NCBI GenBank assembly: GCA_046581755.1 | Contig: JAYGFR010000336.1 | Coordinates: 1 to 12,451, forward strand | DNA from: Nitrospinota bacterium | Lineage (GTDB): Bacteria; UBA8248 | Direction: 5' to 3' | Length of the DNA: 12,451 bases | Shown: piece by piece, positions 1 through 12,451 of the stretch | Layout of the letters: each line of letters opens with the position of its first letter | How positions within the stretch are numbered: position 1 is the first letter of the stretch | Program-made: the position numbers and the translations under genes | Notes under the pieces: generated by a model | What the model saw: the letters and a program-made list of their open reading frames with translations, nothing else | Database searches by the model: none | What the model was told of the DNA's origin: nothing

Positions 1-183
1 CGGGATTGTTTTCAGGGACTCAAGGGATCCTTTCTGAAAATGAATGAGCTTCAGCCTGCCCTCGATGTGCTTGTTGAGCGGGTCTACCTGGCCAAAATAC
101 CCCAAGAGGGCAGCGGGAAGGCCGGTAGGCCGTCGAGTGCCTCCTATTGTGTCAATCCTTCCTTGACGGAGGACTGGGCATGA
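1..183 (+). CDS. C-terminal fragment of a DUF3987/YfjI-family replication (primase-associated/helicase-like) protein, 5'-truncated by the window
   Basis: Frame 1 is open from base 1 to TGA 181-183: RDCFQGLKGSFLKMNELQPALDVLVERVYLAKIPQEGSGKAGRPSSASYCVNPSLTEDWA*. The 'AL..L.E..YL...GRPS..Y.VNP' tail is typical of DUF3987 C-termini. Not listed in the ORF track. Confidence 0.7.
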   Translation, partial: RDCFQGLKGSFLKMNELQPALDVLVERVYLAKIPQEGSGKAGRPSSASYCVNPSLTEDWA

Positions 184-569
184 GCTGGCGGGAAATCCTC
201 GGAGCCAAGAAACGGGAAATAGAACCTCTAGAACAATATCCTCAATATCCTCAAAACCCCACCCAAGCCGGGAATTCTGAGGATATTGAGGATATTGCTC
301 TGGGGGAGACGAAGTACGAATCCCATCTGGCCCCAGGCTTTACCCCCGAGGATGCCGTTCTCATCCGCAAGAGAGCGAAGGCTTTCCAAAGTCATTTAGA
401 TAAGCCCGGCCCGCACCTCTTTTTTGTCCTTAATGGCGCGCAAATCCGAGAAGGGTATTGCCTGACGTGCGGTGAGCGGCCCGTTGCTGGACGGCTTGGG
501 GTGAGGTGCCGGATTTGCGGGGAAGCGGCCCGAATCGCCCTCTCCGGGGAAAAGGTGCGGGAGAAATAG
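180..569 (+). CDS. Hypothetical protein (129 aa) with C-terminal CxxC...CxxC zinc-ribbon; N-terminal part overlaps the iteron repeat
   Basis: ATG at 180 overlaps the upstream stop (ATGA 180-183) and follows GGAGGA, so it is preferred over the track start at 147. Contains CLTC and CRIC motifs. Confidence 0.6.
   Translation: MSWREILGAKKREIEPLEQYPQYPQNPTQAGNSEDIEDIALGETKYESHLAPGFTPEDAVLIRKRAKAFQSHLDKPGPHLFFVLNGAQIREGYCLTCGERPVAGRLGVRCRICGEAARIALSGEKVREK
234..297. repeat. Perfect 20-bp inverted repeat, each arm made of tandem 9-bp units (CAATATCCT); candidate replication origin
   Basis: CAATATCCTCAATATCCTCA (234-253) and its exact reverse complement TGAGGATATTGAGGATATTG (278-297), 24-bp spacer. 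Imperfect pairing extends out to about 225/306. Confidence 0.9.
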
Positions 570-573
570 AGCC

Positions 574-690
574 ATGTCTCTCAAGCCCATGCCTGAGCCA
601 AACCCCTACCTGAATGCGCCCCTATCCCTTGTGGAGGAGCTTCCGTCCACCAATCACGCCCATCACAAGAAAAGCACCGATAGAAAATGA
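574..690 (+). CDS. Putative 38-aa small protein
   Basis: MSLKPMPEPNPYLNAPLSLVEELPSTNHAHHKKSTDRK*. Starts 4 nt after the previous stop, and its TGA overlaps the next ATG (ATGA 687-690). Below the ORF-track length cutoff. Confidence 0.35.
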   Translation: MSLKPMPEPNPYLNAPLSLVEELPSTNHAHHKKSTDRK

Positions 691-875
691 TCAAAGATAG
701 CGATTTCCAGGAGTCCCAGGCCAGTGAAAACCCAGGCGCGCTAGTTTTTGATCTGGTGGGGAAAATTCTTGCGTCAGCAGCAAAACGTATCCAAGAGCAA
801 GATCCCGCCGTTCTTGAAAAGATGGAAGAAAAAAAACATAAGGGTTCAAAATTAAACATAATTTGGAAGAATTAA
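687..875 (+). CDS. Small hypothetical protein (62 aa)
   Basis: ORF co-oriented with the element genes, predicted amphipathic helix (VFDLVGKILASAAKRI) and basic tail. No recognised family. Confidence 0.5.
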   Translation: MIKDSDFQESQASENPGALVFDLVGKILASAAKRIQEQDPAVLEKMEEKKHKGSKLNIIWKN

Positions 876-876
876 C

Positions 877-906
877 TTGATTTTCATCCTCTTTAGATAT
901 AACTAA
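877..906 (+). promoter_or_regulatory. Candidate promoter/operator for the HTH-integrase operon
   Basis: TTGATT (877-882) and TATAAC (898-903), with a short 15-bp spacing. The -10 sits within the near-palindrome TTAGATATAACTAA (893-906, 12/14 symmetric). AGGA RBS precedes ATG 923. Confidence 0.45.
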
Positions 907-922
907 TAGGTTAGGATATGGC

Positions 923-1141
923 ATGAAAGAAAAACAGTTAGGGAAGATATTGAAATCTATGCGCCTTAAAAAGGGTCTTTCTGCCGAGGCGCTTTCGAGG
1001 GAAAGCGGTGTCAGTGCCATGCATATAGGACGAATTGAACGCGGGGATATGTCTCCTACTATGGGGATTCTAAATAAAGTTGCTTCGGGTTTGGATGTCG
1101 AAATGGTCTTGCGATTCAGGAAGAAGGGGAAAAAGAAATGA
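923..1141 (+). CDS. XRE/Cro-C1 family helix-turn-helix transcriptional regulator (72 aa)
   Basis: LGKILKSMRLKKGLSAEALSRESGVSAMHIGRIERGDMSPTMGILNKVASGLDV fits the HTH_3 pattern. Its stop overlaps the integrase start (ATGA 1138-1141). Confidence 0.92.
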   Translation: MKEKQLGKILKSMRLKKGLSAEALSRESGVSAMHIGRIERGDMSPTMGILNKVASGLDVEMVLRFRKKGKKK

Positions 1142-2694
1142 AGCTAGCCGCTTTATATGCTCGAAGCAGTAAAGATCGCAATGATGTATCAGTTGATTCT
1201 CAATTAATCGATCTTCGGAAAAGGGCGAAGGAAGACGAATATTTGGTGGTCCAAGAATATGCCGATAAGGCCTTTTCTGGAAAAGATGACGATAGGCCTG
1301 GATTTCAAAATATGATCCGAGATGCGCAATTGGACAATAGGAAATGGGACCGTTTGTACATGCTTGATACCGCGCGGTTTTCTCGGTCAATTTATGATGC
1401 TGTTGTATACGAAAGATTACTCCAAACTAATGGGATTAGAATAACCTATCTCCAAATTCCAGATGATACTGAGTCCGGGGTGAGTGAATTAATTACACAG
1501 GTAATGCGAGGCATAAACAGATTTCATAGTGTTAAGTCAAAATCAGGTGCTTTGAGAGGAATGAGGGAAAATATTCGGAGGGGATTTCGAGCTGGTGGGG
1601 TTGCTCCGTATGGGTATGAATTAAAATATGAAGATACTGGTGCAGTAAGGGAAGGTAAGCCAGTGATGAAGTCTCGGCTTTTCATTAATCCCGAAACATC
1701 AAGGGTTGTGGCTGAATATTTTGAGCGGCGGGCGAGGGGAGAGGGTCGGAAAACAATCGCCATGGATTTTAATGGGCGCGGGATTCAAGCTCCTAGAGGT
1801 GGTATGTGGTCTTCTTCCTCACTTCGCAGCTTTGAAGACAATGTCATGGTCTACCTTGGTCATACGGCTTGGGGCCGGGATGGTGAGCGGATAGATGGTA
1901 AATTCATCAATGGTCGCTGGAAAGAGCAAAGGGAGTGGGAAATACACGAAGACACCCACGAAAAGTTAATTACACAAGATGTCGCTGATGCTGTTATGAG
2001 GCAGCGGAAAAAACGTTCGTCAGGAGCGTTAAAACCATCTAATTACCTTCTCACGGGGACACTTACTTGCGGTTCGTGCGGAAGCCTCTACACGGGGAAT
2101 AGGGGGTATTACCGATGCGCCGGTGGAGATAAGTACGGACGGGGTTATTGCGGAAACGGCCAGATCTCACAAGAAATTCTCGAACGTGAAATCCAACGGG
2201 CTGTTAAAGATTTTGTCCTCGTACCTGAATTCACGAAAGAATACATCAAATCGGCTCGACGCCACCTGAGGGCTAAGCCTGAAGCCAAAGAGAATATCTC
2301 TTCGCTAGAAAAACAGATCGCCAAGATCGAGAGAACTATTCAGCGGTGGATGGGTGTTTTTGAATCCGAAGGGATAGGATGGGAGAGGGCAGTTGAGCGT
2401 ATACAGGAGCTTGAGGCTGAAAAAGAAGAAGTTGAAGTGAAACTAGCTAGCCTAAGATCGTCCTCTCAGGTAGTGCCCTTAACTGCTGATATTTCCGAAC
2501 AATTTTTGGAAGAGTTGCTAGCGCGGTTTGAAGAAACCATGTCTCTCGGCGACATGGTTGACCGAAAGGCACTAATTGGGGAAGTGGTGGAAAAGATAGA
2601 AATCGGCCCCAAAGTAAAAAGTAGTCGATGCCGGGAATTGACGATGGAAACCTGCCTATTTCCCCTTATTTCTGGTGACCCCAAGGGGATTTGA
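1138..2694 (+). CDS. Large serine recombinase (serine integrase), 518 aa
   Basis: Resolvase catalytic domain (YARSS, D..FSG...DRPGF, RFSR), recombinase domain (GG.APYGY; HE.LI), Zn ribbon (CGSCG...YYRC...C) and coiled coil (LEKQIAKIERTIQRW...LEAEKEEVEVKL). Confidence 0.96.
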   Translation: MKLAALYARSSKDRNDVSVDSQLIDLRKRAKEDEYLVVQEYADKAFSGKDDDRPGFQNMIRDAQLDNRKWDRLYMLDTARFSRSIYDAVVYERLLQTNGIRITYLQIPDDTESGVSELITQVMRGINRFHSVKSKSGALRGMRENIRRGFRAGGVAPYGYELKYEDTGAVREGKPVMKSRLFINPETSRVVAEYFERRARGEGRKTIAMDFNGRGIQAPRGGMWSSSSLRSFEDNVMVYLGHTAWGRDGERIDGKFINGRWKEQREWEIHEDTHEKLITQDVADAVMRQRKKRSSGALKPSNYLLTGTLTCGSCGSLYTGNRGYYRCAGGDKYGRGYCGNGQISQEILEREIQRAVKDFVLVPEFTKEYIKSARRHLRAKPEAKENISSLEKQIAKIERTIQRWMGVFESEGIGWERAVERIQELEAEKEEVEVKLASLRSSSQVVPLTADISEQFLEELLARFEETMSLGDMVDRKALIGEVVEKIEIGPKVKSSRCRELTMETCLFPLISGDPKGI

Positions 2695-2747
2695 ACCCCT
2701 GTTCCAGGCTTGAGAGGCCTGTGTCCTAACCACTAGACGATGGGGCC
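2673..2747 (-). tRNA. tRNA-Glu (anticodon CUC), 75 nt with encoded CCA
   Basis: Reverse complement: GGCCCCA TC GTCT AGTGGTT AGGAC A CAGGC CTCTCAA GCCTG GAAC AGGGG TTCAAAT CCCCT TGGGGTC A CCA. All four stems pair. The anticodon CTC is at + strand 2712-2714. Confidence 0.97.
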
Positions 2748-2780
2748 GTGGTGATGCGCCTCTGCCTCAAACTCGCGGCG

Positions 2781-2809
2781 AGAGTAGCCCCTCGCCGGGA
2801 GGCCGTCAA
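2781..2809 (-). promoter_or_regulatory. Sigma70-type promoter of tRNA-Glu
   Basis: Minus strand TTGACG (2809-2804), 17-bp spacer, TACTCT (2786-2781), followed by a GC-rich discriminator, about 33 nt upstream of the tRNA 5' end. Confidence 0.75.
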
Positions 2810-2915
2810 GTTTCGGGCCCGGCTCCTCCGGCCCTCCCGGCGGCGCGAGGGCGGTATGCTGAGGAGACCGGTCGGTGCGGCGCCGTCCGCCGCATGGGGG
2901 CAGGGAGCCGGGCGC

Positions 2916-3104
2916 ATGGACACCTCCAATCCGATCCGGATCGTCCTTTTATTCTTCGCCCTGGCCGCTGCCGCCGGGGCGATGGTGTTCATGGTATTTC
3001 TCGAACTCCTCCCGGAATCCTGCGAGAGCGCCAGCCGCTCGTCGGTCGGGCTCCTCGTCAGCCTGACGCTCGGGGCGATGATCCTCTTCCAGGGCTTCCT
3101 ATAG
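2916..3104 (+). pseudogene. Truncated ZIP-family (ZupT/GufA-like) metal transporter remnant or 62-aa two-helix membrane protein
   Basis: MDTSNPIRIVLLFFALAAAAGAMVFMVFLELLPESC...GLLVSLTLGAMILFQGFL resembles the last two helices of ZIP transporters (A.AAGAM...V..EL.PE). GGGAG RBS precedes ATG 2916. Far shorter than a full ZIP protein. Confidence 0.6.
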
Positions 3105-3118
3105 AGGGGCGGGCTTCC

Positions 3119-3147
3119 TTGACAGAGGCTCCGCGGGTTCCTACTGT
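3119..3147 (+). promoter_or_regulatory. Sigma70-type promoter upstream of the aminotransferase
   Basis: TTGACA (3119-3124), 17-bp spacer, TACTGT (3142-3147), followed by an AT-rich leader and GAGGA RBS. Confidence 0.65.
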
Positions 3148-3218
3148 TCGGGATGTTTGACACAAAAATAAAAAATTCCAGATAAACCGAAATTATCTTT
3201 CACTGAGGATCGAGCGAA

Positions 3219-4157
3219 ATGCCAAAATACGGGCACAGCAAGGTCTGGCTGGACGGGGAGATCGTCGCCCCCGAGGAGGCCAAGATCAGCGTTTTTTCGC
3301 AGGCGGTCCTGCGGGGCGGGAGCGTCTACGAAGGCATCCGTGGCTACTGGGGGGAGGAGCGCGAGAACCTTTTCGTGTGGATGCTCGATCCCCACTTCGA
3401 CCGTCTCTACGAGAGCATGAAGATCATGCGGATAGACCCGCCATACAGCCGCGAGGAGATGCGCGAGGCCATCCTCGAGTGGATCCGCGCCAACGACTTT
3501 CGGGAAGACATGCATTTCCGCCTCAACATCTATCTCGGGGACGCGGGCCGCTTCGATATGAAGGGGTACGGGTCCGCCGAGGTCGAGGCCGGGATGTTCA
3601 TTTCGGGCGGGTCGCGCAAGAACGCTGAGCGTCTCAAGAACGGCGTCCACCTGGGGGTGAGCAGCTGGCGCCGGATATCGGACGACAGTATCCCGCCGCG
3701 CGTCAAGGCCTCCGCCAACTATCAGAACAGCCGCTTCGCCGGGGTGGAAGCCCGGGTGAACGGCTACGACGATGCCATACTCCTGAACCAGAGCGGAAAG
3801 GTGGCCGAGGCGCCGGGCGCCTGCATCATGGCGATCCGGGACGGCGAACTCATCGTCCCGCCCGTGACGGAGAGCATCCTCGAGAGCATCACGCGGTCGT
3901 GCCTTTTGGAGATGTACGGCAAATACATCGGCAACCCGGTGGTCGAGCGGCCGCTCGACCGGACCGAGCTTTACGTCGCCGACGAGGCGATCATGTGCGG
4001 CTCGGGCGAGGAGGTCACCCCCATCGTCTCGGTGGACCGCATCGCCGTGGGAGACGGGAAGCCGGGCCCGCTGACCCGGCGACTCCAGGATATCTTCTTC
4101 TCCGCCGTGCGCGGAAGCGACGAGGCCTACGAGAAGGGGCTCACCCCGGTCTATTGA
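3219..4157 (+). CDS. ilvE: PLP-dependent class IV aminotransferase (branched-chain amino acid aminotransferase-like)
   Basis: VWLDGEIV, G.SVYEGIRGY, HFDRL..S, catalytic Lys in RVKASANY, GYDDAILLN..G.VAE, ILESITR, ELY.ADE..MCGS..EVTPI, G.PGPLTRRL. Confidence 0.88.
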   Translation: MPKYGHSKVWLDGEIVAPEEAKISVFSQAVLRGGSVYEGIRGYWGEERENLFVWMLDPHFDRLYESMKIMRIDPPYSREEMREAILEWIRANDFREDMHFRLNIYLGDAGRFDMKGYGSAEVEAGMFISGGSRKNAERLKNGVHLGVSSWRRISDDSIPPRVKASANYQNSRFAGVEARVNGYDDAILLNQSGKVAEAPGACIMAIRDGELIVPPVTESILESITRSCLLEMYGKYIGNPVVERPLDRTELYVADEAIMCGSGEEVTPIVSVDRIAVGDGKPGPLTRRLQDIFFSAVRGSDEAYEKGLTPVY

Positions 4158-4180
4158 TCGCGGGCCATCGCCTATCTTTT

Positions 4181-4218
4181 GGAACGAACCTCCGGAACGA
4201 ACCTCTGGAGCGCCCTCC
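4181..4218 (+). repeat. Short tandem repeat, about 3 copies of a 13-bp unit
   Basis: GGAACGAACCTCC (4181-4193), GGAACGAACCTCT (4194-4206) and degenerate GGAGCGCCCTCC (4207-4218), between convergent genes. Confidence 0.65.
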
Positions 4219-4246
4219 GGCCGGGGCGGGTGTCCCCTCCCGCCGG

Positions 4247-5221
4247 TTAGGCGAGAATCTCCAGGCCCCGCTGAACCACCTTTCCGTCAATCTCTATTGT
4301 CGGGTCCCACATTATGAGGTCGTAGTGGGTGGCCGCCTTGAGCGTTCCCCCCAGCATGAGGCTGGTTCCGATCCCGATGTGAATGGTGTTGAGGACCCCC
4401 TCGTCCTCGAGCATCCGGCCGGTCATCCGGGCGCCCGGGTTGAGGCCGACGCCGAGTTCGGCGACGTTCCAGCAGTTGGGGTCGTCGTGCCCGGCGATGG
4501 CGTCCTGGAGGATTTTCACCTGCTCCCCGCCGCCCTCGATTTGAGCGATGAATCCTTTTTCAATCGTGCATGTGAACGGCTCCCGGAGGGAGCCGATGCC
4601 CAGGTAGGGGATGCTGGCATCGACCACGAAGGTGCCCTCGGCGGTGCCCTCGATGGGCGGGACGTTGACCTCGATCGTGGGCACCGGCGAAATCTCGCCC
4701 GGATCCGGAATGTTGGTCATCACGTTCGCCTTCCGGCCTCCCGCCTCGAAACGCAGGTCGGTTCCCCGCGGGGAGGTGAGCCGGAAAGATTCGCCCTCGG
4801 TGAACGCCCGCCCGAGCCTCCGGCACACCTCGGCCTGGGCGGAGAAGTCCGTTTCGAGAATCGCCGGGCTCAGGAACATCTCGTCCGACCAGTCCGACAT
4901 GGCCAGTATCCGCGCCCGCGCACGGAGGGCTTCCTTGACGGCCACCGTGTGCGTCATCGAGATCGATACCGGGATGAAGATCAGATCGGCTTCCTTCATC
5001 GCGGCGGCCACCGGCGCCGGCGGCTCCTCCCCGTGCATCCGGCGGGGGGGCATGACCGCCGTGACCACCTCTCCGCCCAGCGAGGCGGCGGCGCGCGCCA
5101 CCCGCTCTGCAAGTGTGGTCGTATCGTAGTCGGTGATGACCAGGACGCGCTCGCCCTCCTGGACCCGCCCGTTCACCTGCGCGAGGCGAAGCGCCCCGCG
5201 GGCCAGCATGACTTCGTTCAT
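4247..5221 (-). CDS. M29/thermophilic metalloprotease-fold protein (leucyl aminopeptidase/aminopeptidase T-like)
   Basis: GERVLVITD, GEEPP..VA.AM, TSPRGTDL, P.IEV, AELGVGLNP, LEDEG..NTIHIGIG and THYD metal-ligand motifs. GGAG RBS upstream on the minus strand. Confidence 0.85.
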   Translation of the reverse strand: MNEVMLARGALRLAQVNGRVQEGERVLVITDYDTTTLAERVARAAASLGGEVVTAVMPPRRMHGEEPPAPVAAAMKEADLIFIPVSISMTHTVAVKEALRARARILAMSDWSDEMFLSPAILETDFSAQAEVCRRLGRAFTEGESFRLTSPRGTDLRFEAGGRKANVMTNIPDPGEISPVPTIEVNVPPIEGTAEGTFVVDASIPYLGIGSLREPFTCTIEKGFIAQIEGGGEQVKILQDAIAGHDDPNCWNVAELGVGLNPGARMTGRMLEDEGVLNTIHIGIGTSLMLGGTLKAATHYDLIMWDPTIEIDGKVVQRGLEILA

Positions 5222-5369
5222 AAATATCTCCAGAGGTCTCTATGAAAATGGTCGGGATTCTTTCGGCCAATTTACCCCCTCCGGGGGTCCTCATGAAAGC
5301 GGAAAGGTTTCGCCGCCCCGCCGATTCAGGGATAATGCGGCCTCCAAGACTTTATTCACGGAGCGCCAG

Positions 5370-6476
5370 ATGCCACCGGAAACCAAACAGCCCATCGAGT
5401 GGGCCTGGTACCTTCCCTCCAACAAGCGGGGAGACGCCACCCGCCTCGGGACCGGGGGGGTCGAAATCCCCCCGTCGCCGGAATATCTCGTACATATCGC
5501 CCGGACGGCCGAGGCGAACGGCCTCGCCAATATCCTGATTCCGTGCAACTCCTCGTGCCCGGACGGCTGGCTCCTCGCCTCCGCCCTGAGCCGCGAGACC
5601 GAGCGCCTCAAGTTTCTCGTCGCCATTCGCCCCGGCCTTTCCGGCCCCGCCCTCGCCGTACAGCAGGCGAACACCCTCGATCAGCTATCGGGCGGGCGCC
5701 TCACCGTGAACATCGTGCCCGGCGGCTCGACCGAGGATCAAAAGCGCTACGGCGACCATCTGGACCACGACGAGCGCTATGAACGCGCCAGCGAATTTCT
5801 CGACGCGGCGCGCGCCTTCTGGCAAAAGCCCGGGGAGCGGGTGAATTTTAGGGGGAAGTATTTCGAAATTGAGGATGGCGCGGTGTATCCGGACCCCTGG
5901 CGGCCCGGCGGACCGCCCCTTTATTTCGGGGGAAGCTCGCCCGTCGCCAAGCGCGTCATCGCCCGCCACGCCGATGTCTTTCTCAAATGGGGGGAGACGC
6001 CCGCCCAGATTCGCGAGGAGTACGAGGAGGTGCGGAAAATGGCCCGCGAGGGGTACGGCCGCAGCCTCCGCCTCGGGGTGCGCTTTCATATTCTGGTCCG
6101 CGAGAGCGACGCCCAGGCCAAACAGGATGCCGAGGCCCTTATCGCCGGTGGTGCCTCCTACGGCGATGTCTCCGAGGTGACCGGACGGGTGCAAGGCGAT
6201 GTGGAATCCATCTCCCAGCAACGCATGAACGCAATGAGCGTGGGCGGAAGGCTCTGGTGGGGCAAGGCGCTGTTTTCCGGGATCAATCTCGTCCGCCAGG
6301 GGGCGGGCACCATGCTTGCCGGGAGCCCCGAGGTCGTGGCCGAGGCGATCCGCGAGTACATCGACGCCGGGGCGACGACGTTCATCATGAGCGGCTGGCC
6401 GCACGACCGGGAGGCCGAGAATTTCGGGCGCCTCCTCAGGCCCCTCCTGCCCGAAGAGGCGGCCGTCCCGGCCTGA
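5370..6476 (+). CDS. LLM-class (luciferase-like) FMNH2-dependent monooxygenase, SsuD/MsuD-like
   Basis: W.LP...GD, YL..IA..AE..G, TERLKFLVAIRPG, TLDQLSGGRL.VNIVPG, HDERYERA.EF, PPLYFGGSS, WGE, GSPE.VA...EY...G...FI.SGWPH..EAE.F. Start placed at ATG 5370 (GGAG RBS), because the track start at 5133 overlaps the opposite gene. Confidence 0.9.
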   Translation: MPPETKQPIEWAWYLPSNKRGDATRLGTGGVEIPPSPEYLVHIARTAEANGLANILIPCNSSCPDGWLLASALSRETERLKFLVAIRPGLSGPALAVQQANTLDQLSGGRLTVNIVPGGSTEDQKRYGDHLDHDERYERASEFLDAARAFWQKPGERVNFRGKYFEIEDGAVYPDPWRPGGPPLYFGGSSPVAKRVIARHADVFLKWGETPAQIREEYEEVRKMAREGYGRSLRLGVRFHILVRESDAQAKQDAEALIAGGASYGDVSEVTGRVQGDVESISQQRMNAMSVGGRLWWGKALFSGINLVRQGAGTMLAGSPEVVAEAIREYIDAGATTFIMSGWPHDREAENFGRLLRPLLPEEAAVPA

Positions 6477-6505
6477 GGCTCCTCCCCGGAGGCGGGGAGG
6501 AGCCT
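6476..6505. terminator. GC-rich hairpin between convergent genes (probable terminator/mRNA-stabilising stem)
   Basis: AGGCTCCTCCCCG - GAGG loop - CGGGGAGGAGCCT, a perfect 13-bp stem beginning at the last base of the LLM stop codon. Lacks a strong U-tract. Confidence 0.65.
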
Positions 6506-6569
6506 TCGAACATCCGCATCGCGTTCCGTCTCATCCACGAGAGTGTCTTTTTCCTACAAATCGTTCAGT

Positions 6570-7673
6570 TCAGTCGAAGCGCTTCGGGTCGTAGGGGACC
6601 GGGTCGATGGCGGGCTCGGCGCCTGTGATCAGTGCCGAAACGAGCGCCGCGCTCAGCGGGGCGGGGGTGATTCCGGTCGGGCCGTGCCCGGTGCAGAAGA
6701 ATAGGCCCTGGATGTGGCCCTCGCCGATCAGGGGGAGATAGTCGGTGCAAAGCGGGCGGAAGCCGGTCCAGGTTTCGAGGATGGGGGCCTCCCGCAGGGC
6801 GGGTACGGTCTCGATGGCGGCGCCCAGGAGCCAGGACAGCCCGCCGGCCGTGAGGCGGGGGTCTTCGCCCGCGAATTCGCGGGTGGCGCCGAGGATGAGT
6901 TTGCCGTCTGTCCGAGGGACCAGATAGGGGTCGTTCACCGTCATCAGCACGCGGCGCACCCCGAGGCCCCGCGCATCGAGGGCGACCATCTGGCCCCGCT
7001 GGGGGGTGATGGGCGGGGCGGGCCGCGCCCCGGCGAGGTGGGCGCTTCCGATTCCCGCACAGATAACCACGACGGGCGCTTCGAAGTCTCCGGCGGATGT
7101 CCGCACCCCCCGGACGCGATCTCCGGCGGCGATTATCTCTTGGCTGACGACCGCCGTCCGTATATCCACTCCCGCGCGGCGGCAGGCCATCTCGAGCGCG
7201 GGCCCGAGGCGGCGCACCTCGACATTTCCCCCCTTGACGAGCAGCGCGCCCGCCAGGTTCGTGGCCAGGGCGGGCTCCTCTCCGGGAAGTCTCTCCGGTT
7301 CGATCCACTCGGTGTCGCCCCACTGGCGCGTCACGGCCTTTTCCTGAATGCCACGCTTTTCGTCCTCGTTCAGGGCGAGGAGGAGAACCCCGGTGAGGCG
7401 GAACTCGACGTCCATGCCGCTCTCCTCGCGGATGGCGTCGGGGAGGTCGAGCCACATATCGTAGGAGGGGTGCCGAAGACGCGTTCCGGCTTCTCCGGCC
7501 AGATCGGCCGCGCCGCTCGAGCCGTGGGGGGAGATGATGCCGGCCGAGGCCCATGTCGTGCCCCCGCCGGGCTGTCCTTTTTCGAGAAGGAGAACCCCCC
7601 GTCCCGCGCGAGCGAGTTCCCGAGCCGTCAGCAGGCCCATGATCCCGCCGCCGACGACGATGATGTCGGTCAT
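6570..7673 (-). CDS. FAD-dependent oxidoreductase, glycine oxidase (ThiO)/D-amino-acid oxidase family
   Basis: DIIVVGGGIMG Rossmann motif, TTWASAGII, PQRGQM, YLVPR.DG.LILGAT.E, WTGFRP, TGHG..GI..AP, P.RF C-terminus. Confidence 0.9.
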   Translation of the reverse strand: MTDIIVVGGGIMGLLTARELARAGRGVLLLEKGQPGGGTTWASAGIISPHGSSGAADLAGEAGTRLRHPSYDMWLDLPDAIREESGMDVEFRLTGVLLLALNEDEKRGIQEKAVTRQWGDTEWIEPERLPGEEPALATNLAGALLVKGGNVEVRRLGPALEMACRRAGVDIRTAVVSQEIIAAGDRVRGVRTSAGDFEAPVVVICAGIGSAHLAGARPAPPITPQRGQMVALDARGLGVRRVLMTVNDPYLVPRTDGKLILGATREFAGEDPRLTAGGLSWLLGAAIETVPALREAPILETWTGFRPLCTDYLPLIGEGHIQGLFFCTGHGPTGITPAPLSAALVSALITGAEPAIDPVPYDPKRFD

Positions 7674-7683
7674 TTCGGACCCT

Positions 7684-8193
7684 TTATTGGGCTGCGTTGC
7701 GCTGGCGGAGGTAGGCGACGAGGCCTCCCGCCCGGATGATTTCCATCAGATGCTCGGGAAGGGATTCGGATTTGAGAAGATTTCCCTGGGTGATGTTTTC
7801 GATTTCACCGGCGATGGGGTCCGCGCGAAGGAGATCGCCCGCCGCGATGGCGCCCGCTTCGGGACAAATGAGAACCGGAAGGCCGATGCAGATCGAATTT
7901 CGGAAAAAGGTCCGCGCGAATGACTGCGCGATCACGGCGCCGACCTTTGCATACTTGAGGCCCCGGGGAGCGGTTTCGCGGCTGGAGCCGCAGCCGAAGT
8001 TCGACCCGCCGACGACGATGCCGCCGGGCTGGACCTTGGAGGCGAATTCGGGGTCGATGCCGGACATGACGTGCTGGGCAAGCTCCTCGTCGGGCAGGCT
8101 TCCGAAGGTGCCCGGCATGATGAAGCCCGTGTCCACGTTGTCGCCGAAGACCCAGGCGTTTCCTTCGATGGTCTTTGTTGCCGTATTGCTCAT
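7684..8193 (-). CDS. leuD: 3-isopropylmalate/homoaconitate dehydratase-family small subunit (LeuD/HacB/DmdB type)
   Basis: G.AWVFGDNVDT..I.P, NFGCGSSRE.A, A.SFAR.FFRN...IGLP, GGL..Y. ATGA overlap with the large subunit stop. Confidence 0.9.
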   Translation of the reverse strand: MSNTATKTIEGNAWVFGDNVDTGFIMPGTFGSLPDEELAQHVMSGIDPEFASKVQPGGIVVGGSNFGCGSSRETAPRGLKYAKVGAVIAQSFARTFFRNSICIGLPVLICPEAGAIAAGDLLRADPIAGEIENITQGNLLKSESLPEHLMEIIRAGGLVAYLRQRNAAQ

Positions 8194-9455
8194 GAGAGGA
8201 ACTCCCTTGGGTCTGCGACGTGTCCCCGAATCGCGCTGGCCGCCACCATGGCGGCGGACCCGAGATAGATGGATGCGTCGATGCTCCCCATCCGGCCCTT
8301 GTAGTTGCGGTTGGCGGAGGAGACGCAGGTTTCTCCGGGGCCGAGCTGGCCGAGGCCGGTTCCGGTGCAGATGCCGCAGGTGGTGGGCATCAATATGCCG
8401 CCGGCGTCGATGATGGGCTCGAGGGTTCCCTCGGCCCAGGCTTTATTCATGATGGCCTTGCTCGCGGGAGCGATGAGGAGCTGGACGCCGTGGGCCACTT
8501 TGTGCCCCTTGATGACGCGCGATGCGCCGCGGAGGTCTTCGAGTTTGGCCCCGGTGCACGAGCCGATATGCGCGCGCTGGATCGGGCCGGAATCCACCTC
8601 TTCGATGGGAAATACATTGTCCATCCTGTGCGGGCAGGCGACCTGGGGGGAGAGATCGGATACGTCGTACTCGTAGCGGGCTGCATAGGTGACGTCGGGA
8701 TCGGAGGTGAACGCCTTCCATCCCCCCTCGACTCCGGCCTCGCGGAGGTAGGCTTCGGTTTTCTCGTCCACTTCGATGAGGGAGCTTTTGGCGCTGACCT
8801 CGGCGGACATGTTCGTCAGGGTCATCCGGTCCTCGACCGGGAGCGACATGACGGCGTCCCCGCCCCACTCGAGCACCTTGTAGTCACCGCCGGCGACGCC
8901 GATGTCTTTGATGGCGAGAAGAGAGAGGTCCTTTCCCCAGGTGCCCAGCGGCATCTTTCCGTTGAAATCGACCCGGATGGTTTCCGGGACGCGGAGCCAG
9001 ACTTCGCCCGTCGTGAGAATGCCGATGCTCTCGGTCGGACCCACGGCGATGCCGAGCGCGCCCAGCGCCCCAGCGTTCGTGGTGTGGCTGTCCGTGCCCG
9101 TCAAGATTCCTCCGGGGCGGACGAAGCCCCTTTCGGCCATGAGAATGTGGCAGATTCCCTCGCCGTCGTAAAAATGGGGGAGTTCGTGTTCTTTGGCGAA
9201 GTCGCGGGTGATGTTCAATACCTTGGTCTGGGTGTCTTTCGTGGGGGGATTGTGGTGGTCGGCCGTGAGGACGAATTTGTTCTTATCCCAGATGGGCAGG
9301 CCGAGGGATTCGAAATCCTTGCCCATCCGGTAGGGACCCTGGTTGTCGTGCATCAATTGGGCGTCCACTTTGGCGAAGACGATCTCGCCGATGGCGACGC
9401 TGTCCTTGCCGCTTGCATGGGCGATGATTTTTTGTGCGGCGGATTGGCCAGGCAC
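8190..9455 (-). CDS. leuC: 3-isopropylmalate/homoaconitate dehydratase-family large subunit (LeuC/HacA type, [4Fe-4S])
   Basis: DH, GICH, G.DSHT..AGA.GA, W.RVPETI, R.TL.NM..E, IGSCT, CG.C.G, NRNY.GRMG, YL.S....AASA..G. Start placed at GTG 9455 (GGAG 6 nt upstream); ATG 9467 is an alternative. Confidence 0.9.
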   Translation of the reverse strand: MPGQSAAQKIIAHASGKDSVAIGEIVFAKVDAQLMHDNQGPYRMGKDFESLGLPIWDKNKFVLTADHHNPPTKDTQTKVLNITRDFAKEHELPHFYDGEGICHILMAERGFVRPGGILTGTDSHTTNAGALGALGIAVGPTESIGILTTGEVWLRVPETIRVDFNGKMPLGTWGKDLSLLAIKDIGVAGGDYKVLEWGGDAVMSLPVEDRMTLTNMSAEVSAKSSLIEVDEKTEAYLREAGVEGGWKAFTSDPDVTYAARYEYDVSDLSPQVACPHRMDNVFPIEEVDSGPIQRAHIGSCTGAKLEDLRGASRVIKGHKVAHGVQLLIAPASKAIMNKAWAEGTLEPIIDAGGILMPTTCGICTGTGLGQLGPGETCVSSANRNYKGRMGSIDASIYLGSAAMVAASAIRGHVADPREFLS

Positions 9456-9547
9456 TTTATTCTCCATTTTGAAAGTGTGGGTGAGGTGCCCTGGGGAGCC
9501 CCCGGGGGACGGGTGCATTTTTCCTCCATTTCGGCCCCGGATGCAAG

Positions 9548-9565
9548 CGGGGCGGGCCCGCCCCG
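9548..9565. repeat. Perfect 18-bp GC palindrome just downstream of the enolase-superfamily gene
   Basis: CGGGGCGGGCCCGCCCCG is its own reverse complement and lies 15 nt past the stop at 9581 on the minus strand. Confidence 0.6.
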
Positions 9566-9580
9566 AAATCGTTGGAGGGT

Positions 9581-10750
9581 TTAGCTGTCAACCAGTTCTT
9601 TCATGATTTTGTAGGGCTCGTTTTTCGCCTCCAGCCCGATGCCGGGAAGGTCGGGGAAGCCGACGTAGCCGTCCTCGACCGGAACGCGGTCGGCGAAGCC
9701 GTTGAAGGGCTTGAACACGTCCGGGTAGGATTCATTTCCTCCGAGGCCCAGGCCAGCTGCAACATTCAGGCACATCTGGTGACCTCCGTGGGGGATACAG
9801 GAGCGGCGCGACCATCCGCTTTCTTCGAGCATCTCGAGAGTCCGCATGTATTCGACGAGTCCGTAGCTGAGGGCGCAATCAAACTGGAGGATATCGCGGT
9901 TGGGGCGCATTCCCCCGTGGCGGATGAGATTCCGGGCGTCCTGCATGGAAAAGAGGTTCTCGCCGGTCGCCATGGGGCCCTCGTAGTGGCCCGCGAGCTC
10001 GGCCTGGAGGGCGTAGTCGAGCGGGTCGCCGGCTTCTTCGTACCAGCGGAGTCCGTAGGGTTTGAGCGCCTCGGCGTAGGTGATTGCCTCCTCGATGCAG
10101 AATTTTCCGTTGGCATCCACGGCGAGATTGCCACCATCGCCGACCACCGCGAGCACCGCCTCGATTCTCCGGAGATCTTCATCGAGGGACGCGCCGCCGA
10201 TTTTCATTTTGACGGTCGTGTAGCCTCGGTCGAGATAGCTTTGCATCTCCTGCTTGAGCGCTTCGAGGCCCTTGCCGGGGTAGTAATAACCGCCTGCCGC
10301 GTAGATGGAGACTTTCTCGTCGGCCTTGCCGCCGCGATACCGGTCCGCAAGGTATCGGTAGAGGGGCACACCCTCGATTTTGGAGACGGCGTCCCAGACC
10401 GCCATGTCGATGACGCCGACAGCCACCGAGCGGTCCCCATGGCCCCCCGGTTTTTCGTTTTTCATCAGGCTGGCCCATATTTTTTTCGGGTCCAGGTTGC
10501 CGCCCTTCTCGTTGAGAAGGCTTTCCGGCGCCGCCGCCTTGAGCCGGGGGATAAAGCGTTCGCGTAGAAGGCCCTGTTGCGCGTACCGGCCGTTCGAGTT
10601 GAATCCGAACCCGACCACGGGTTTGCCGTCCCGGAGGACGTCGGTGATCAAAGCGACGACGCTGACCGTCATCAGGCCGAAGTCGATATAGGCGTTGCGA
10701 ATGTCCGAGCGGATAGGAATGACGGTATCTTTAATGTCAATGATTTTCAC
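9581..10750 (-). CDS. tarD: Mandelate racemase/muconate lactonizing enzyme family protein, D(-)-tartrate dehydratase-like (389 aa)
   Basis: IRNAYIDF, GFNSNGRY, NEKPGGHG.RSVAVG, YAAGGYYY, KMK, metal ligands in AVDAN/WYEE/TGEN, IPHGG and NESY, all matching the TarD subgroup as I recall it. Start placed at GTG 10750. Confidence 0.85.
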   Translation of the reverse strand: MKIIDIKDTVIPIRSDIRNAYIDFGLMTVSVVALITDVLRDGKPVVGFGFNSNGRYAQQGLLRERFIPRLKAAAPESLLNEKGGNLDPKKIWASLMKNEKPGGHGDRSVAVGVIDMAVWDAVSKIEGVPLYRYLADRYRGGKADEKVSIYAAGGYYYPGKGLEALKQEMQSYLDRGYTTVKMKIGGASLDEDLRRIEAVLAVVGDGGNLAVDANGKFCIEEAITYAEALKPYGLRWYEEAGDPLDYALQAELAGHYEGPMATGENLFSMQDARNLIRHGGMRPNRDILQFDCALSYGLVEYMRTLEMLEESGWSRRSCIPHGGHQMCLNVAAGLGLGGNESYPDVFKPFNGFADRVPVEDGYVGFPDLPGIGLEAKNEPYKIMKELVDS

Positions 10751-10910
10751 GAGTGCATTTCCCGGTATCGAAACGGAAGTGTTGTATAAATTGCTGTGCT
10801 GAACACTGCTGGGATGATACACGAATTCGATGTGGGATTGTTTTCGCGATTTTGTAGATTCATGCTCCGGTTGGGGAACATGCCGACATGAACTTCTTCG
10901 CAGGGGGGCC

Positions 10911-11849
10911 ATGATGAGTATCTCGTATTCGGATATCTGGGATTTCCATACCGACCTTCGACTGATTCAACGCCTGCCCCCGGACAGGGAATATCTCCAG
11001 GAACAAATGGATATTCCCGCGGCGGGGAGGCTCGGCGGGCTTTTTACGGCAACGGGAAGGTTTGCCGATCTTCCGGACAAAGAACAACTTGCCCGGCTCG
11101 AAGAAGAGGTGAATTTGATCGCGGGGGCCAGCGGCCTGGATCTGGTTCTTGCAGCGAAAGATTCGGAAGGCACGGGAAATCAATTGCTCCACGCCGAGGG
11201 GATTTATTTTATTCAAAATGAGGAAGACATTGAGTTGATCGATCGGCTCTGGGGCCTTGGCTTCAGGAGCCTGGCGCCGATGTACAACGCGGACAACGCG
11301 CTGGGCGGAGGAGCCGAGGGGGAGCCCTCGCGCGGGCTAACCCGCCTCGGGCGCGCGTTTGCGATGGGAGCCTGGGCGCGGGGTTTCCTGGTGGACTGCG
11401 CCCACGCGAACCACACGACGAAGGGGGATCTGATCGATCTGGCGCTCGTAACGGGCAGCGCCCTTCACTACTCACACGGTCATCTCGATGAGCCGGTGGA
11501 TAAGAGTTTCAAGGAGCGGGGGCTGCCGAGGGAGGCGGTGGAGCGGCTCCTTGAGACGGGCGGTTTGATCGGTCTTTCACCGCACCCGGGTTTTTTGGGC
11601 TCGTTCGAGAGGTATCTTGAAGAGATTGAATTCATCGCCGGAATCGCTCCCTCCCAGGTGGTCCTCGGAACGGATTTCGCCGGGACGAACCGGCCGGGAC
11701 CGGATGGAAACAGGATTTTCGAGGAATTTCGAGGTGTCTGGGGGCTGCCGTCATTTTCAGGTTATTTGCGGAAAAGTCTGGGTAAGGACTTCACTCAAGC
11801 CTACCTGGGCGGAACCCTGAAGACCTATTTAAAAGGAGCGCTTTCCTGA
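10911..11849 (+). CDS. Membrane/renal dipeptidase (peptidase M19, amidohydrolase fold) family protein
   Basis: DFHTD (HxD), HAEG, GFRSL...YN..N, GLT.LG, LVDCAH, YSH, R.L, GG.IG, LGTDFAG. Start placed at ATG 10911 after AGGGGGG. Confidence 0.82.
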   Translation: MMSISYSDIWDFHTDLRLIQRLPPDREYLQEQMDIPAAGRLGGLFTATGRFADLPDKEQLARLEEEVNLIAGASGLDLVLAAKDSEGTGNQLLHAEGIYFIQNEEDIELIDRLWGLGFRSLAPMYNADNALGGGAEGEPSRGLTRLGRAFAMGAWARGFLVDCAHANHTTKGDLIDLALVTGSALHYSHGHLDEPVDKSFKERGLPREAVERLLETGGLIGLSPHPGFLGSFERYLEEIEFIAGIAPSQVVLGTDFAGTNRPGPDGNRIFEEFRGVWGLPSFSGYLRKSLGKDFTQAYLGGTLKTYLKGALS

Positions 11850-11943
11850 TTCGGAAATCCGCTATTCAGTTTTTGCCCAGATGTGATATTTCATCCGTGT
11901 GTGGTCTTGGCAATTAAACGGGAAATATTTTTAGGAGGAACAA

Positions 11944-12446
11944 ATGAAGATCATTCGCCGTTACGGAATCGCAGTTTTCGTCGCATCCTTGATTGTGGCT
12001 GGCCAGTTTCTCGTGGTTGAAGCCGCTGCAAAAAAAAGAGGGGGTGCAGCTGGGAAGCCTCGTCTGTAAATCCCTGCCGGGGACAAGAGTGCAAGTTTTT
12101 CTGCGGTCATCCGTTGCGATCAAGTGCTCATTCAAAACTTCCAATGGCGAGGAAAAATACAAGGGCGAGATTGGATTCCTGGGGATCGACTTGAGTAAAA
12201 AATCCGAAGAAACCCTCTTCTTTTACCGTTTTGGGGTTGACCACGGACGTGAACATTGGCAGTTACACCCTGGCGGGGGATTATGCTGGCGTATCGGTGT
12301 CGGTGGGCATAAAAGAGGGAATCGGAACCACTCAGTTCGTAGGAGGTTTAAAGAACAACTTCAGCCTGGTTCCATCAATTGATACATTTAAAGGAACGGG
12401 GATTTCCGCCGGTGTGAGCCGAATGAAGCTCATGGCCGACAAATAA
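11944..12446 (+). pseudogene. DUF992-like exported protein interrupted by two +1 frameshifts
   Basis: AGGAGG RBS, ATG 11944 and signal peptide MKIIRRYGIAVFVASLIVAGQFLVVEAAA. Removing one A from A8 (12030-12037) and one T from T4 (12221-12224) gives a 166-aa ORF with G.L.C...SS...C.F...E.Y.G.I...GID...LAG.Y.G.S...G.G...VGG...L.P pattern. Confidence 0.75.
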
Positions 12447-12451
12447 TCGTT

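Follow-up and report, generated by a model that had tools for sequence, protein, structure and literature searches.

A mobile element with a large serine integrase and a primase-helicase replication module at a tRNA-Glu(CUC) gene of a Nitrospinota bacterium

The window analyzed here, the whole 12,451-nucleotide contig JAYGFR010000336.1 of a Nitrospinota bacterium, carries at its left end part of a mobile element that runs into the 3' end of a host tRNA-Glu(CUC) gene. As shown in Table 1, this part comprises the end of a primase-helicase-like gene, an inverted repeat, small open reading frames (ORFs), a regulator of the XRE family and a large serine integrase. The window equals contig C164 of the source genome (G000; 96.5% complete, 400 contigs, 60.2% GC), so that the element is cut at base 1 and the sequence to the left of it is unassembled. 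The element genes are all encoded on the plus strand and follow one direction from primase to integrase, towards the tRNA gene on the minus strand, as an original prediction made from the sequence alone had described. The compositional drop that it reported relative to the host is also evident: the GC content is 47.6% at positions 1–2672 versus 62.6% at 2748–12,451, and the GC content at third codon positions is 0.42 in the integrase versus 0.89 in the next host gene. Bases 1–2694 are the right end of a mobile element truncated by the contig start. The element is integrative and of the kind that combines integrase, regulator and primase, in a serine-integrase variant at tRNA-Glu.

Table 1. Features at the left end of the window, with positions in the window, strand and basis of the assignment.
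Feature	Position	Strand	Basis
Toprim_3 + DUF3987 primase-helicase-like replication gene, 3' end (60 residues), cut by the contig start	1–183	+	C-terminal identity to four DUF3987 proteins
ORF of 129 residues, ATGA overlap with the primase stop	180–569	+	Homologs (4 of 7 candidates)
Iteron inverted repeat (9-bp units), likely origin of replication	225–306		Shuffles, fold, conserved position
ORF of 38 residues, unsupported	574–690	+	Read from sequence
Conserved ORF of 62 residues (ORF62), candidate recombination directionality factor	687–875	+	Homologs at the same place in L037 and G014:C173
XRE-family helix-turn-helix regulator, ATGA overlap with the integrase start	923–1141	+	PF01381 (HTH_3), E 3.8e-12
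Large serine integrase, 518 residues, intact; C-terminus GDPKGI in antisense tRNA	1138–2694	+	PF00239, PF07508, PF13408
17-bp att core	2673–2689		Common to four natural junction types; arm symmetry
Intact host tRNA-Glu(CUC), integration target	2673–2747	−	ARAGORN; orthologs in relatives

The integrase contains Resolvase, Recombinase and Zn_ribbon_recom domains. It shows the features of a large serine integrase that had been predicted for it, with Ser10 in the Resolvase domain, a Recombinase domain and a zinc ribbon, with all four cysteines present, that carries a coiled coil. It matches phrog_95 (integrase) with an E value of 8e-78, and the six full-length members of its cluster, which come from separate assemblies, are all intact. 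The best matches among 50,697 phage records are 27–28% identical. The search of IMG/VR gave no near copy, the best full-length matches being 33–40% identical, and a locus search with a single protein query gave no match. The regulator in front of the integrase carries the predicted XRE helix-turn-helix domain.

The order ORF62, XRE regulator and integrase recurs in two other elements, both at tRNA-Glu(UUC). In L037, a compact unit of about 5 kb composed of a MerR-type helix-turn-helix gene, a primase, an XRE gene and an integrase, the integrase is 53% identical and the replicase is of the DUF927/Toprim type. In G014:C173, the integrase is 42% identical and the replicase is of the DnaB_N/AAA_25 type. 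In both elements, XRE homologs precede the integrase, and the counterparts of ORF62 are 35% (L037) and 23% (G014:C173) identical, with pairwise E values of 2e-5 and 0.026. A search of 1.84 billion proteins with ORF62 gave four matches, two of which are short true homologs; the other two are long repeat proteins and were set aside. A profile of ORF62 run over the collected loci gave no further convincing copy. The 62-residue protein is a candidate directionality factor because of its size and its linkage to the integrase. Such factors share no common family and are difficult to find, according to the available part of PMC11795197.

The replication gene is represented by ORF 1–183, which is 87%, 77%, 72% and 68% identical to the C-termini of four longer DUF3987 proteins. 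The matches to P0055 (87%), labelled Nitrospinaceae by NCBI, and to P0056 (77%) span all 60 residues. Toprim_3 and DUF3987 domains were verified on these two proteins and also occur on P0058, which bears out the DUF3987-like gene end proposed earlier; ORF 1–183 by itself has no Pfam match. With P0055 and P0056 as queries against G000, matches were found in the window only.

The inverted repeat is formed by two 32-nt arms (225–256 and 275–306) that agree at 88% and are built of 9-bp direct repeats. Its score of 21 compares with at most 11 in 100 dinucleotide-shuffled versions of positions 1–1140, and its folding z-score is −6.1, with 0 of 200 shuffles equally good. The iteron inverted repeat of the original prediction is thus significant, but it is contained in ORF 180–569 and does not lie between genes. 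Judged by position and pattern, a matching repeat stands directly after the DUF3987 stop codon in G012:C2, L227 and L228. In G012, the reading frame ends right past the repeat and the ORF is lost, which indicates that DNA rather than peptide is conserved here. The inverted repeat is probably the replication origin.

In the ORF of 129 residues, the N-terminal part covers the inverted repeat and the C-terminal part contains two CxxC pairs. Homologs of this C-terminal domain were found in the elements G014:C173 and G032:C44 and in G000:C242, where positions 2301–2633 encode a second homolog of the zinc-binding domain (E 1e-8) amid transposase fragments. Neither this ORF nor ORF62 has a Pfam, PHROG or usable Atlas match. 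Two of the three small ORFs proposed earlier are supported by homologs, namely those of 129 and 62 residues; the third, of 38 residues, falls below the cut-off of 40 residues used in the analysis, and the G014:C173 element has no intervening ORF at the equivalent place.

The same replicase and repeat stand beside tyrosine integrases in G012, L227 and L228. The G012 element has a length of 15.3 kb and lies at tRNA-Gly(GCC), with a tyrosine integrase and a duplicated end of 25 nt. The ORF62-XRE-integrase group and the replication module therefore appear to be two separately exchangeable cassettes. ORF lists for the available parts of L037, G014:C173, the G012 element and L227, inspected by eye with selected ORFs scanned, showed neither capsid nor terminase genes. 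The cargo of the G012 element (L224:1863–17180 in G012:C2) includes a Cas9 of 1089 residues (RuvC_III, HNH_4, Cas9_a), an ORF that looks Cas1-like by eye and an array of 36-nt repeats in which the core occurs 19 times, which corresponds to a type II CRISPR system carried by a satellite-like island. Its 18 spacers gave only partial matches of 16–19 nt in the collected DNA. L228 is a compact IMG/VR contig of 9452 bp that resembles a phage-inducible chromosomal island (PICI) and encodes a tyrosine integrase, HNH and both the small and the large terminase subunit.

At the target, the integrase ORF covers the last 22 bases of the tRNA gene, and its stop codon (2692–2694) corresponds to the antisense T-loop. 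Loci were retrieved with an alignment of 22 homologs, 80 from genomes and 80 from viral sequences. An antisense tRNA at the integrase end was called in 57 of the genome loci and was tRNA-Glu every time (53 UUC and 4 CUC); the other 23 gave no call. Among the viral loci, 13 have an antisense tRNA-Glu gene, four have a more distant Asp or Gln tRNA gene on the same strand, and no tRNA was called in 63. The integrase belongs to a tRNA-Glu-specific clade. Among the 42 family genomes examined, three of four same-genus genomes carry the end of a related integrase at the same tRNA gene; in the fourth, G003, the contig ends 195 bases past the tRNA gene in sequence that resembles the integrase end of G014:C173. 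At the orthologous site, G010 is empty, and G014, of the same genus, contains a 3.4-kb insert with a 17-bp duplication. An empty-site relative, as sought in the original prediction, thus exists, and this pair, together with the gene content, supports its central proposal of an integrative element that carries a replication module of its own and is directed to tRNA-Glu by a large serine integrase.

A search of G000 with the 17-mer of the core at up to 3 mismatches gave nine matches. One of them is the site itself, two (C11 and C338) are copies of the tRNA-Glu(UUC) type and six are chance-like. These two copies concern the other tRNA-Glu of this genome, tRNA-Glu(UUC). On C11, positions 9841–10176 contain a serine-recombinase-like C-terminal remnant (by eye) that ends in a 24-nt fragment of the tRNA. 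At C338:447–868, a tyrosine-integrase-like gene (by eye) adjoins the intact tRNA gene. These two places can be read as the displacement of an earlier element by a later one. The reverse strand of C161 (about 1120–3400) is syntenic with the G004 island at that island's left edge. It carries an att-like core of 8 nt that is degenerate, together with remnants of mobile elements, among them a terminase-like fragment (by eye), and may form the distant edge of this same island region. Contig C74 was considered as the left end of the element and dropped, as it shares only a repeated motif of 28 nt.

The crossover position was predicted from the symmetry of the att arms. The 160 loci divide into 92 that run into the tRNA gene, 49 in which the core is followed by other DNA (attP-like) and 19 without the core. 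Full arms were available for 91 and 48 loci of the first two groups, and 81 tRNA-side and 43 attP-like sites remained after removal of duplicates. The arm symmetry reached 9.5 of 17 positions in the attP-like sites versus 3.7 of 17 on the tRNA side, and only at offset 0; no other offset exceeded 5.1. The center is the dinucleotide that follows the first ten core bases. The same-genus arms of G001, G002 and G004, compared with the att copies of G004, agree at 14–15 of 17 positions about the same center. The crossover is therefore predicted at the AA at 2683–2684, the boundary between the T-stem and the acceptor stem of the tRNA.

Part of the stretch is contained in 20 of 24 listed sequencing runs, all of them marine, vent or sediment samples from 13 studies; six runs were examined for junctions as assembled contigs. 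The integrase runs into the tRNA gene in X1, X4 and X7 (junction 1) and into an alternative arm in X4, X5, X7 and three of the six full-length cluster members (junction 2). Another left flank runs into the tRNA gene in X5 (junction 3), and this same flank into the alternative arm in L036 (junction 4). All four junctions lie on the core and formally correspond to the products of one integration and excision. In favor of such an origin, the two junction contigs in X5 have similar depths of 6.4 and 6.0, and no second integrase joined to the tRNA gene occurs among the junctions listed for this run. The X3 contigs, which cover 70% of that run, do not cover the integrase and carry no evidential weight. 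No genome contig matched a guessed pattern based on the GTRS tail, and the real junction pattern was found in one metagenome contig and in no viral contig. The site is polymorphic in nature, and its recombination falls within the predicted core. Just inside the alternative att arm, L036 (reverse complement, 1528–2037) contains an ORF of 169 residues without a Pfam or PHROG match, which we take to resemble a terminase small subunit. A DNA copy of it, 76% identical, lies at a contig end in G000 (C300:5119–5451).

On the basis of these results, the preferred reading, to which we assign a probability of roughly 0.55, is that a small mobile element carries the end of a primase-helicase gene, a likely iteron origin and an integrase predicted to recombine at the AA at 2683–2684 in tRNA-Glu. 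Recombination at this dinucleotide would restore tRNA-Glu(CUC). The XRE protein would control the operon, and the 62-residue protein would act as the directionality factor with which the integrase excises the element. The excised circle would use its own primase-helicase to replicate from the inverted repeat, and transfer between cells may occur in particles or vesicles produced by others, as for satellite-like islands with an integrase, a regulator and a primase.

Several observations weigh against this reading. The left end, the cargo and the second att site are missing from the assembly, so that size and self-replication are deduced from relatives. The searches of G000 gave no second att copy, and in G000 no 12-mer starting at 2673–2678 occurs elsewhere; the duplicated tRNA-Glu 3' fragment that was predicted to mark the other att site is thus absent from this assembly. 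A search for the DUF3987 family across G000 gave no matches, and the 62-residue gene occurs in just three elements among the collected loci. A relative of the replication module, L228, carries terminase genes. The left arm of this integrase lacks the G-run of most clade arms and may be impaired. The alternative arm, the sole non-tRNA arm observed next to this integrase, agrees with this left arm at only 3 of 17 positions, below all 43 attP-like sites of the clade (lowest value 5), and fits arms of the G003 and G014 type at 10 of 17. Because of this arm mismatch, the interpretation of the GTRS-ending proteins as products of the excised circle was lowered. The four junctions are probably due to a neighboring unit; that they reflect excision of the element itself is possible, but is not the explanation we favor. 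For the circular junction sought in the original prediction, the metagenome contigs show four junctions on the core, but the arm joined to this integrase fits a neighboring element better.

PICIs and capsid-forming PICIs are defined by packaging or capsid-remodelling genes (TerS, capsid). The element may be a true satellite of this type with its packaging genes in the unassembled left part, which we regard as unlikely. L228 pairs the same DUF3987 gene (50% identical) and the repeat with HNH, Terminase_4 and TerL, and serine recombinases occur in 91% of module 3 of the virion-encapsidated integrative mobile elements (VEIMEs) and in PICI-like elements (PLEs), as stated in the available part of PMC9618062. 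However, the integrase of L228 is of the tyrosine type, and tblastn with its TerL and TerS gave no match in G000, the left part of the element being unassembled, at an E value of 0.01. Positions 1–2672 contain no packaging gene, the two closest cassette relatives have none in their available DNA, and the viral database gave only the distant integrases mentioned above.

Slightly less probable still is a stranded remnant that no longer excises itself, the variety of junctions arising from other serine-integrase elements that insert between it and the tRNA gene. The arm joined in X4, X5 and X7 fits another subtype, as described above, and in the other frame encodes a degron-like tail of that subtype, ending in GLRLAS; stacked att copies and decayed integrase ends occur at the site in relatives (G004, G014:C50). 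Against this, the integrase is of full length with all catalytic and zinc residues, the six cluster members are intact, P0002 (77% identical) has the same frame, and the four junctions are exactly the products of one excision, without a second integrase-tRNA junction listed in X5.

A temperate prophage whose right end is seen here, and which would replicate through the primase, is very improbable: the clade is common on IMG/VR contigs of 35–45 kb, and IMG/VR supplies 38 of the 43 attP-like sites, but these contigs sit in a different branch of the integrase tree (described below) from the window integrase, which groups with the compact L037, the genes are unidirectional from primase to integrase, and the phage records hold only remote matches.

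Integration alters the C-terminus of the integrase, because the att site lies inside the integrase gene. A similar layout, with a gene extending over its att site, is present in Myxococcus phage Mx8. In the attP-like forms of the clade, 20 of 43 integrases end in Ala-Ala and 31 of 43 in [AVILR]-Ala, after basic residues and 17–33 residues beyond the center, whereas none of 79 integrated forms has such a tail. The [AVILR] class was picked post hoc and the sites are related, so that p-values overstate the effect. In the background, 39 of 832 long ORFs end in Ala-Ala, and 0 of 75 do so in other frames of the same arms. The alanines of the tails use all four Ala codons, which argues for selection on the tail peptide. 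Basic Ala-Ala tails resemble ClpXP tags. The Ala-Ala tail of the clade is likely a ClpXP degron that is replaced by tRNA-derived residues on integration, a reading supported by analogy with mycobacteriophage BPs, as described in the available part of PMC3694055. L058 (integrated, ending in FEPLYRP) and L059 (attP-like, ending in GIRIAA) have near-identical integrases in the two states.

The copy in the window differs from this pattern. In a quick tree of 77 rows with trimmed tails, for which the careful tree search is incomplete, every Ala-Ala form falls within a branch of 56 rows, and the window integrase lies in a separate branch of 8 rows with L037 (SH-aLRT support of 100). In six of these eight rows the core is read in a shifted frame, one (P0003) uses the usual frame and one is truncated. 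Read in the usual frame, P0003-type arms from the same genus encode a tail that ends in RIKRIA, which indicates that the 8-row branch formerly possessed the tail. The two junctions observed end in GI and GTRS when read in the shifted frame, so that this copy has no Ala-Ala tail, and the switch may have been lost in this lineage by the frame shift. The frame-shifted branch and the 62-residue gene that travels with the integrase are new here. Taken as a whole, the proposal would be that the tRNA-Glu clade strips its own ClpXP degron by integrating, that the present branch escaped by a frameshift before att and uses ORF62 as a new directionality factor, and that it cycles often enough for four junctions to coexist in ocean samples; this combination is doubtful.

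The element was compared with known systems on the basis of the available parts of the publications cited. With tycheposons (bioRxiv 10.1101/2020.12.28.424599), it shares a tRNA target, a replication module beside the integrase, stacking at one tRNA gene and a marine host. Unlike here, the hosts of tycheposons are picocyanobacteria, and their seven tRNA targets do not include tRNA-Glu. The original prediction had assumed that tycheposons pair large serine recombinases with replication genes, which proved wrong, as 910 of 937 elements in that study carry a tyrosine recombinase and 27 a serine recombinase. Its tycheposon-like reading also fails, since the definition includes an inward-facing integrase and the integrase here is of the serine type and faces outward into the tRNA gene. 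The suggestion of an undescribed family was too strong, because serine recombinases occur in VEIME module 3 and PLEs and the PICMI (phage-inducible chromosomal minimalist island) search model admits serine-integrase Pfam families.

The likeness to PICMIs and generic satellite-like islands (PMC10803314) consists of a DUF3987 primase, a small regulator, an integrase at the element end and a small gene that overlaps the integrase gene by ATGA; the search model accepts PF00239 and PF07508. The combination of integrase and primase (DUF3987 or DUF5906) that defines them is present. PICMIs also require AlpA (PF05930 or PF12728) and sit after fis in Vibrionaceae, in contrast to XRE HTH_3 and tRNA-Glu here. 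AlpA is absent among the Pfam matches of the ORFs in the available 2.7 kb, the left part being unassembled. VEIME module 3 and PLEs (PMC9618062) are marine and satellite-like and combine serine recombinases with primases or helicases. VEIMEs are defined by concatemers in virus particles, and the element here is known from assembled contigs alone.

The ssrA islands of Dehalococcoides (PMC3146451) have a serine integrase of about 500–540 residues, DsiB, whose 3' end extends over att so that the stop codon lies outside the element, as here; they also form tandem arrays at one RNA gene, which resembles the site of this element. They target the tmRNA gene (ssrA), not tRNA-Glu, and have no DUF3987 primase. 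Their six-gene module (dsiA, recF-like, parB, mom) is not in the available part of this element, where the neighbors are the XRE gene, two small ORFs and DUF3987. McMurdie 2011 (PMC3146451) already suggested a regulatory meaning for the dsiB-att overlap; a degradation tag is not proposed in the available text. In BPs (PMC3694055), a C-terminal tag for proteolysis is lost on integration because a gene contains attP, and the clade tails resemble such tags. There, it is the repressor gene that contains attP, and the tag of Int is kept, whereas attP here lies in the integrase gene. The XRE gene ends 1.5 kb before the att core, and the attP-in-repressor feature is thus absent. The tag swap of the BPs type appears as a sequence pattern in the clade (20 of 43 versus 0 of 79) and is absent in this copy (GI, GTRS). 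The available parts of PMC12884075 and PMC12286644, and PMC12424338, contain nothing on this integrase clade. In the literature outside subscription journals and supplements, neither a tRNA-Glu serine integrase clade nor a degron swap in a serine integrase was found.

The tail switch at the level of the clade is the most interesting part of these results, yet it is unused by this copy, and the type of element is familiar. The tailed members L058 and L059 and the frame-shifted, tail-less branch form a natural pair for the idea of a degron that is lost by self-integration. The small conserved gene is a testable candidate for a directionality factor. The T-stem and acceptor-stem target in tRNA-Glu is conserved across many phyla and, with the predicted crossover, makes the integrase a possible broad-host integration tool.

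A promoter scan gave 0 sites versus 2.7 expected. Further observations concern the rest of the window. A second fall in GC content, to 47–54%, occurs at about 10,500–11,250 and 11,500–12,250 near the right contig end (10,830–12,451 of the window). Upstream of the tRNA gene, a stretch of about 120 bp (2970–3092) is 72–81% conserved in many relatives up to the class level and falls inside a short hydrophobic ORF at 2748–3104.

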